DNA from: Escherichia coli
GTDB lineage: Bacteria > Pseudomonadota > Gammaproteobacteria > Enterobacterales > Enterobacteriaceae
Reading direction: 5' to 3' (one strand)
Assembly (NCBI RefSeq): GCF_045037415.1
Contig: NZ_CP173438.1
Length of the DNA stretch: 64,000 nt
Shown here: in pieces, positions 39,411 through 40,220 of the stretch
Position numbering within the stretch: position 1 is the first letter of the stretch
How the letters are laid out: every line of letters starts with the position of its first letter
Notes under the pieces: model-generated
What the model was told of the DNA's origin: nothing
What the model saw: only the letters and a program-made list of their open reading frames with translations
Databases searched by the model: none
Program-made: the position numbers and the translations under genes

Positions 39411-39988
39411 GACTATAATCCTTTATAGATTAGGATAGGCTGTGAATGGGACAATTAATACAGGTCTAATTTAATATTAATTGCATAGAGAGATTACCAT
39501 AGTTAGAGGTGGCCAGATATGTTTATATTGAAGATTGGTTAAGTAAATTTCAAACATATAATTTATAATTATATGTTTGAGCATATTTTTCTGGTTATTA
39601 GCTGTTTGAAGTTTTTATAATATATTTAGTGTATATTTTGATTGATAAATAGCCATTTATTTACAGTTATTTACACGGGTGTTGAAGTGGATTAGGGAGT
39701 GTTTTTTATGAAAATCGGAGGGAGGAATAACTTCAAAGATATAATATATATCTAGTGATACTTATTAAATTTTATTATCCTGAGTAATGTTTTATGGAGA
39801 ATTGATACATAATCAATATTATCGATCGATTGTTTTTTGAACAATCATGAGATATAATACAACACTTACTATGATCGAAATCATATACATGATCCACAAC
39901 TATGCGAGTATATGAATATATTCAACGTTGGATATGTGAAATTTTAACGCTAAATGTTTAGTAATGTTAAATTTTGAAGGTGAAAAGG

Positions 39989-40159
39989 ATGTTTATTGCC
40001 TGGTACTGGATTGTATTAATTGTTCTACTAGCTGGTGGCTATTTTCTTCATCTTAAACGTTACTGTAAAGCTTTTCGCCATGACAGAGATGCGCTGTTAG
40101 CTGCCCGAAGTAAATTAGATAAACGCTCCGATAAAGAAGTGTTTGAAAAGCATCAATAA
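39989..40159 (+). CDS. Hypothetical small single-pass membrane protein (56 aa)
   Basis: SD AAAAGGA then ATG; MFIAWYWIVLIVLLAGGYFLHLKRY... hydrophobic N-terminus with basic C-terminus; sits in an AT-rich spacer; followed by a hairpin. Confidence 0.3.
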   Translation: MFIAWYWIVLIVLLAGGYFLHLKRYCKAFRHDRDALLAARSKLDKRSDKEVFEKHQ

Positions 40160-40162
40160 TAC

Positions 40163-40200
40163 CTTTAATAACGATACAGATGTTGCCTTTAGCAATGGGC
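40163..40200. terminator. Bidirectional terminator hairpin between the small ORF and zupT
   Basis: ACAGATGTTGCC-TTTAGCAATG-GGCAACATCTGT perfect 12-bp stem. Confidence 0.6.
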
Positions 40201-40220
40201 AACATCTGTCATTATCATCT

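Follow-up and report, generated by a model that had tools for sequence, protein, structure and literature searches.

The Yqi fimbriae of Escherichia coli (extraintestinal pathogenic E. coli (ExPEC) adhesin I, EA/I; named 'Ygi' in strain CFT073, where the genes are c3791-c3794) and the Yqi-like fimbriae are encoded by related, mutually exclusive operons at different loci, Yqi in phylogroup B2 and Yqi-like in phylogroups A, B1, D and E, including ygiL-yqiGHI of K-12 (Wurpel et al., PMC3559732). Functional studies of Yqi have used tac or pBAD expression vectors (PMC2771359 among them), and the Ygi-Yqi locus was without serum response in CFT073 and in the ST131 strain EC958 (PMC13245861). The small protein YqiD (b4756) of K-12 has been detected by a chromosomal SPA tag and was also positive in a ribosome-profiling screen (VanOrsdel et al., PMC6001520), and a preprint reports that E. 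coli isolates differ in their level of yqiD expression according to cis variants upstream of the gene, as confirmed by a reporter assay (bioRxiv 10.1101/2025.06.10.658842). Here we describe the DNA in which the two meet, positions 39411-40220 of a 64,000-nt stretch of E. coli chromosome (contig NZ_CP173438.1); this whole stretch is called the window below. Very probably, the interval as a whole controls two unrelated transcription units that diverge from it, the Yqi operon and yqiD, and ends with a 3' hairpin common to the two convergent genes yqiD and zupT. Its parts are known entities (the Yqi/EA-I operon, yqiD and an H-NS-coated AT-rich island promoter): the operon, yqiD and the H-NS coating of the orthologous locus have been published, and all coding parts are annotated in RefSeq. 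Two features seem to be undescribed, namely the hypervariability of the Yqi control region, which exists in three alleles and includes a lineage-specific palindrome, and a deeply conserved palindrome upstream of yqiD. Annotation was taken from the RefSeq record of an identical locus, with an annotated neighbourhood of 15 kb, and genome counts refer to a search set of 5,426 complete E. coli genomes. The features of the interval are the following.

39411-39865, minus strand: AT-rich regulatory region and 5' leader specific to the Yqi operon; no K-12 homology, 27% G+C, hypervariable between B2 lineages
39419-39423, minus strand: Yqi ribosome-binding site AAGGA, within the operon-specific region
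39550-39563 and 39567-39580, no strand: perfect 14+14 palindrome TCAAACATATAATT-TAT-AATTATATGTTTGA, specific to the window allele
39597-39614, minus strand, and 39729-39746, plus strand: two further, related TTCAAAsA copies beside the palindrome
39736-39755, no strand: invariant 20-nt block AAGATATAATATATATCTAG, identical in seven of seven aligned alleles
39741-39768, minus strand: candidate sigma-70 promoter of the Yqi operon, TTAATA-16-TATTAT, predicted by a consensus scan (9/12)
39866-39988, plus strand: conserved yqiD upstream region (presumed promoter and 5' untranslated region), alignable to K-12 and three Citrobacter species and 94-100% identical among B2 alleles
39870-39885, no strand: 16-bp palindrome TATGATCGAAATCATA, candidate yqiD operator, found by alignment of yqiD upstream regions
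39977-39982, plus strand: yqiD ribosome-binding site AAGGTG, six bases 5' of the ATG
39989-40159, plus strand: yqiD, B2 allele, a predicted small single-pass membrane protein of 56 amino acids (69% identity to YqiD b4756; RefSeq WP_001296421.1)
40176-40187 and 40198-40209, no strand: hairpin with a perfect 12-bp stem (12/12 complementary) and a 10-nt loop

The spacer between the start of the major-subunit gene (39410) and that of yqiD (39989) is 578 bp long (39411-39988) and contains 26.8% G+C, against a window mean of 50.2%; the most AT-rich 500 bp of the window are 39522-40021, at 25.6% G+C. An earlier note on this DNA, made by a model from the letters and a list of open reading frames (ORFs), had described about 600 bp upstream of the major subunit as very AT-rich, which is borne out (the G+C content is the lowest in the window), and as a fimbrial promoter region, which holds for ~455 bp of it; the remaining ~123 bp are the conserved upstream region of yqiD. 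This division follows from where the conservation on the yqiD side begins: similarity to K-12 starts at ~39866 and is absent to the left of it, so that ~123 bp of the spacer belong to yqiD and ~455 bp (39411-39865) to the Yqi operon. The conservation of yqiD runs from the 16-bp palindrome to the start codon, and none is seen upstream of the palindrome, whatever the neighbour there: ribB in K-12, assT-dsbL in two Citrobacter species, or the Yqi operon in the window. Within this region, TATGATC(G/A)AAATCATA does not vary between the two E. coli alleles, C. rodentium, C. amalonaticus and Citrobacter sp. Insertions seem to have occurred repeatedly in the DNA directly 5' of this palindrome. We also observed that the Citrobacter species with assT-dsbL directly upstream of yqiD are C. 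rodentium and C. amalonaticus.

In the rightward unit, ~39866-39988 would form a compact, conserved plus-strand promoter region that includes the 16-bp operator-like palindrome. The half-sites of this palindrome and their spacing resemble, to our own eye, FNR/CRP-type sites; literature on the palindrome, or on a zupT terminator, yielded nothing usable. A well-delimited and deeply conserved control region of 120 bp with a single palindromic site offers an easy entry to the question of when this small membrane protein is made. In the leftward unit, 39411 to ~39865 would provide the promoter and leader of the chaperone-usher operon on the minus strand. The best minus-strand promoter match, TTAATA-16-TATTAT (39768-39741), is a candidate for the Yqi promoter and would leave a leader of ~330 nt. 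It overlaps the sole long invariant block of the variable region, AAGATATAATATATATCTAG, which is unique in the window and for which 100 shuffles gave 0 chance matches. Both promoter positions are predictions. An extra small gene within the spacer was considered and rejected: among ORFs of at least 20 codons in the three alleles compared, only a 22-codon frame (39847-39915) recurs, and this frame is situated in invariant DNA, lacks a ribosome-binding site and shrinks to 5 codons in K-12 and Citrobacter. A search of 38700-41200 against Rfam (E up to 1) returned only two chance snoRNA-like matches, both outside the region.

The fimbrial operon on the left is Yqi, and its four genes are listed here from the promoter outward.

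38847-39410, minus strand: Yqi major fimbrial subunit gene, first of the four-gene operon (NCBIfam PRK09733, Pfam Fimbrial, RefSeq, published primer)
36240-38762, minus strand: Yqi usher gene (RefSeq annotation of the identical locus)
35484-36224, minus strand: Yqi chaperone gene (same source)
34438-35487, minus strand: Yqi adhesin gene (same source)

The major subunit matches the NCBIfam equivalog PRK09733 with an E value of 1e-103 and 344 bits (cutoff 189), and the Pfam family Fimbrial. The published primer IMT-P3045 ('yqi operon'; Antao et al., PMC2771359) is the exact reverse complement of 39376-39410. The gene lengths (564, 2523, 741 and 1050) agree with those of CFT073 c3791-c3794, and the order of major subunit, usher, chaperone and adhesin, as annotated in RefSeq, is that of the published yqi cluster. 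In K-12, the Yqi-like ygiL-yqiGHI operon sits between ubiK and glgS and shares 65-74% DNA identity with the Yqi operon; in the window, ubiK adjoins glgS and the Yqi operon is placed between ribB and zupT. The local order is glgS, ubiK, ribB (plus strand), the four fimbrial genes (minus), a 171-nt gene annotated 'hypothetical protein' (plus), zupT (minus), ygiD and dsbI-dsbL-assT. The zinc transporter gene zupT, the convergent neighbour of yqiD in the RefSeq annotation, occupies 40221-40994 on the minus strand with its stop codon at 40221-40223. The Yqi spacer was found in 989 of the genomes searched, and the operon segment between ribB and zupT is specific to phylogroup B2. Between ribB and the Yqi adhesin gene, at 34406-34432, we observed a canonical bidirectional terminator, AAAATGCCGGGGTGTTCCCGGCATTTT; the K-12 ribB terminator differs.

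The B2 haplotype is larger than the operon. Divergence from K-12 continues through yqiD and the hairpin (46-88% identity), and identity returns to 96-100% at ~40250, just inside zupT; the haplotype therefore spans roughly the stop codon of ribB (34384) to that of zupT (40221). For yqiD and the hairpin, the distance between the B2 and K-12 alleles is as large as that between E. coli and Citrobacter (proportion of synonymous differences, pS, 0.66). In Escherichia genome LR890262.1, which is without the Yqi operon, yqiD is chimeric, with a B2-type 5' half, a K-12-type 3' half and the K-12 hairpin, indicating a recombination breakpoint inside the gene, near codon 37.

Within B2, the control region itself has diverged. 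Positions 39428-39852 are only 59-64% identical between the window and Nissle 1917, TUM14759 or N31, while in the same comparisons identity is 96-100% for the usher and major-subunit genes and 99.4% for yqiD. Three haplotype groups can be told apart, that of the window, that of Nissle and CFT073, and that of TUM14759 and GN25, the latter two being 75-81% identical to each other. The counts over the 989 genomes with the spacer are bimodal: 526 genomes stand at 95% identity or more, 463 at 60-80%, and none in between, which favours replacement by recombination over gradual drift. The perfect 14+14 palindrome is single-copy and is carried by exactly the 526 genomes with the window-type allele; a palindrome of this quality turned up in no more than 0.3% of shuffles. 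When the genomes representing 100,044 species were scanned with the exact pattern for a donor of the palindrome, only two unrelated AT-rich chance matches came up. A repeated or mobile element was rejected as an explanation, the hairpin and the palindrome segment each being single-copy per genome. The 1,031 bp around the interval are 100% identical in many complete E. coli chromosomes, some of which we take to be ST131 strains, and the window allele is apparently confined to the ST131 clone.

A bolder reading would be that the Yqi control region was wholly replaced in the window lineage (the 526 genomes), with the palindrome and its TTCAAAsA copies as a putative operator array that gives lineage-specific adhesin expression, and that, separately, the palindrome upstream of yqiD is a putative site for a global regulator. 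We regard this as rather improbable. If it were true, a pandemic clone would have its own expression programme for the Yqi adhesin, and the small membrane protein YqiD, encoded beside a metal transporter, might be under a global regulator. With three deeply diverged forms between near-identical genes, the Yqi regulatory region offers a clear natural example of 'switched' non-coding DNA, which could account for unequal adhesin expression among strains.

Two further observations concern variation at this locus. A second mosaic hot-spot (34400-35900) takes in the Yqi adhesin gene together with the last part of the chaperone gene, and identity to Nissle and TUM14759 is 65-87% there; strain N31 has the sequence of the window up to ~34800 and then switches. 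In two genomes (NZ_CP124392.1 and NZ_CP159750.1), an IS1 element splits the 1,031-bp query region, and the effect of this natural insertion on yqi or yqiD expression could be informative.

The fimbrial promoter had been proposed to be silenced by H-NS, with chromatin immunoprecipitation sequencing (ChIP-seq) as one way to check it, and published data on the orthologous genes support the proposal, albeit in a strain with another spacer allele. In CFT073, c3790 (171 nt), c3791 (564 nt), c3792 and c3794 are listed among the H-NS-bound genes (Hustmyer et al., PMC9765446, Data set S1, sheet 1E, 'H-NS bound gene'), with wild-type occupancies of 0.35, 0.27, 0.09 and 0.25, respectively, and the same genes are bound by StpA as well (PMC9765446). 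According to the CFT073 record, the 171-nt gene adjoining zupT (c3790) encodes a protein identical to that of the window ORF, and C_RS18015/c3791 is the major subunit; the bound genes thus include the orthologues of yqiD and of Yqi. Overproduction of TosR, a PapB-family, anti-silencer-like protein, raised c3791 by a log2 value of 5.3 (PMC5956150), and genomic SELEX flagged the K-12 ubiK-ygiL spacer as 'HNS' (PMC3946193). The use of tac or pBAD vectors in functional work and the missing serum response of the locus point the same way. Because of its extreme AT-richness, the spacer would be a substrate for H-NS/StpA filaments, and such filaments would hold down expression of the Yqi operon in culture as long as neither an anti-silencer nor some unknown signal lifts them.

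Two points weigh against carrying this reading over to the window. The ChIP-seq, TosR and primer data come from CFT073 and from avian pathogenic E. coli, whose spacer is ~61% identical to that of the window in the variable part; and the H-NS high-affinity motif TCGATAAATT, allowing up to two mismatches, has 3 matches where 2.1 are expected from composition, which is uninformative. Since CFT073 carries a different spacer allele, we infer H-NS binding of the window allele, and the silencing of this particular, apparently ST131, allele, from its equal base composition.

To the right of yqiD stands the hairpin, which the earlier note had called a shared terminator. The perfect 12-bp stem is present and maintained, but its role as a shared terminator is putative and a T-run is absent on both strands. 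The predicted folding energy is -21.8 kcal/mol for the plus-strand RNA (z = -6.8) and -24.0 kcal/mol for the minus-strand RNA (z = -5.9), and 0 of 200 shuffles were as good. The stems are ACAGATGTTGCC / GGCAACATCTGT in B2, CAGAAGTTGTCC / GGACAACTTCTG in K-12 and ATGTTGTCCTG / CAGGACAACAT in C. amalonaticus. All three are perfect, with one exchanged pair (U-A vs A-U), one whole base pair gained or lost, and unrelated loops; the persistence of a perfect stem through paired changes indicates selection on the hairpin structure. The hairpin is single-copy per genome and occurs in 993 genomes, in essence those that also carry the Yqi operon.

What this structure does is the part of the reading with the strongest competitor. 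The hairpin might instead be a 3'-end RNA-stabilizing or processing structure, or a protein-binding palindrome, kept for one gene only. This is the main rival to a terminator, and we consider it somewhat unlikely, though worth keeping in mind. In its favour, and against termination in both directions, no T-run follows the stem (the tails are CAUUAUCAUCUUUA on the plus strand and AUCGUUAUUAAAGG on the minus strand), a terminator scan of 38800-40400 gave 0 sites, in K-12 only the yqiD strand has a U-rich tail, UGUUGUUUUU, and C. rodentium and Citrobacter sp. have no hairpin at all, their spacers being 25-34 nt long. On the other hand, the hairpin lies 16 nt past the stop codon of yqiD and 11 nt before that of zupT, the classic place of a bidirectional terminator between convergent genes, its stem is long, perfect and maintained through the paired changes described above, and the convergent arrangement or Rho may assist termination. 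A shared terminator is therefore plausible: the hairpin at 40176-40209 would form in yqiD as well as zupT transcripts, at their 3' ends, and most likely stop or stabilize them.

The 56-codon ORF with a Shine-Dalgarno sequence and a hydrophobic N-terminus that had been pointed out between the spacer and the hairpin is yqiD, a real gene of the chromosomal backbone that is not part of the fimbrial system. The protein matches K-12 b4756 in BLASTP with 37 of 54 residues identical (69%; E 4e-27), both being 56 amino acids long. The gene is convergent with zupT in K-12, CFT073, three Citrobacter species and another Escherichia genome; homologues are limited to Escherichia and Citrobacter, always in this arrangement. 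The mean Kyte-Doolittle hydropathy of residues 1-19 is +2.06, with zero charged residues among them, and residues 21-34 contain 5 K/R vs 2 D/E. These features suggest one N-terminal transmembrane helix and, after it, a tail that is basic and probably cytoplasmic. In codons 1-37, pS between the B2 and K-12 genes is 0.66 and the proportion of non-synonymous differences (pN) is 0.10, which argues for purifying selection on a real protein. The 19 C-terminal residues are free to vary and are essentially unrelated between B2 and K-12; the N-terminal 37 residues, the length and the position are conserved into Citrobacter.

That the frame instead arose by chance in AT-rich DNA, with no expression in this strain, is very unlikely. 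In favour of such a chance frame, YqiD reaches the threshold of no Pfam or NCBIfam family, and the published detection of the protein concerns the K-12 allele. The name 'DUF4051', attached in a database to one Citrobacter homologue, was not reproduced by current Pfam and was set aside. Against a chance frame, however, stand the K-12 orthologue, seen by SPA tagging and also by ribosome profiling (the check that had been proposed for the small ORF, and positive in published data), the N-terminus, length and position kept into Citrobacter with the pN/pS of 0.10/0.66, the conserved upstream region and ribosome-binding site, and RNA-seq association work that treats yqiD as expressed across isolates.

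Two kinds of phase switch were also weighed for the Yqi promoter. A Pap-like switch, in which Dam methylation and Lrp acting in the spacer would make Yqi phase-variable, is highly improbable as well. Many fimbrial operons of this clade use methylation switches, and the spacer holds three GATC sites (39824, 39873 and 39891) vs 1.2 expected from composition. Yet the operon has four structural genes only and no papI or papB homologue, and the sites are 49 and 18 bp apart vs ~102 bp in pap. Two of the sites are conserved and lie in the yqiD-proximal region, one of them within the palindrome that Citrobacter has without a fimbrial operon, and the third is exclusive to the window allele. Number, spacing and conservation of the GATC sites are thus unfit for a Pap-type methylation switch, which was rejected.

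Least credible of all is a fim-like invertible promoter, on which a tyrosine recombinase would act at a perfect 12-nt inverted pair (39451-39462 and 40012-40023) that flanks 549 bp of the spacer, or at a 13-nt pair (39403-39415 and 39959-39971): although ExPEC strains have orphan fim-type recombinases elsewhere in the genome, a 12-nt pair of this kind arises in 9-12% of dinucleotide shuffles, the other alleles do not have its left arm, its right arm falls within the coding sequence of yqiD, a gene under purifying selection that inversion would destroy, no recombinase gene is annotated in the 15-kb neighbourhood (yqiJ to ygiB) or elsewhere in the window, and a query with 39451-40023 inverted between its native flanks was covered to at least 80% in 0 of the 5,426 genomes, the native arrangement being contiguous in 796. 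The statement of the earlier note that no inverted repeats flank the region is corrected by the 12-nt pair, and the note had also passed over the 14+14 palindrome within the spacer; its conclusion that no fim-like switch is evident stands, there being no recombinase gene nearby and no complete genome with the tested inverted form, and the invertible switch was rejected on the chance-level repeat and the lack of inverted matches. Control of Yqi would then proceed without DNA inversion and without a Pap-type methylation switch.

By its annotated equivalent in strain SK1144, the window runs from ebgA to qseC, and it contains other AT-rich or variable segments. Its second most AT-rich stretch, 45118-45617 (26.8% G+C), lies between assT (43343-45139, minus strand) and ygiC and is presumably the promoter side of the assT-dsbL-dsbI islet. 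At 61988-63608, ygiZ, a hypothetical gene and an orphan type VI secretion gene of the Hcp family (62179-62658) lie in an AT-rich block (30-35% G+C). The H-NS occupancies tabulated for CFT073 by ChIP-seq are 0.73 for ygiZ and 0.84 for the adjoining entry C_RS29490, far above the values for the Yqi genes. Between parE and ygiN, an islet at 53765-60957 carries a TonB-dependent siderophore receptor gene, an FecCD-type ABC transporter and an RpiR-family regulator gene.

When compared with known systems, the Yqi control region resembles fimS of the type 1 fimbriae in its AT-rich composition, its size of a few hundred bp, its place as a promoter segment 5' of a major-subunit gene and the presence of one short inverted pair. 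It differs in that this pair is at chance level and not conserved, with no recombinase gene nearby and no inverted form among the genomes searched. It is closer to the H-NS-silenced promoters of cryptic chaperone-usher operons such as yad and the K-12 Yqi-like ygiL, with which it shares an AT-rich promoter, horizontally variable DNA, H-NS binding in ChIP-seq or SELEX, low native expression and induction by a PapB-family protein. The difference from the yad/ygiL type is that hns-dependence of Yqi is not reported in the literature searched, in which we found no measurement of yqi transcription in an hns mutant, and that the window allele is known from its sequence alone. The hairpin between yqiD and zupT is similar to bidirectional intrinsic terminators, such as the one between ribB and the Yqi adhesin gene (34406-34432), in that a stable perfect stem follows just past two convergent stop codons, but the ribB-side terminator has a flanking A-run and T-run, whereas the yqiD-zupT hairpin has neither and its loop is long (10 nt).

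The two transcription units themselves have close relatives. The B2 YqiD shares with that of K-12 the length of 56 amino acids, the convergent arrangement with zupT, the N-terminal transmembrane segment, the HLKRYC+AFR+DRDALL motif, the upstream palindrome and the downstream hairpin. It differs in an amino acid identity of 69%, synonymous sites near saturation and the 19 C-terminal residues, and in that the upstream neighbour in K-12 is the ribB terminator and not a fimbrial operon. Finally, the operon has in common with the described Yqi/EA-I the same four genes, the same site between ribB and zupT, the exact match to the published primer and the limitation to B2 and related lineages; its spacer, however, is a distinct allele, 59-64% identical over the variable 425 bp to the CFT073/Nissle and TUM14759 forms, and carries the 14+14 palindrome as a private feature.

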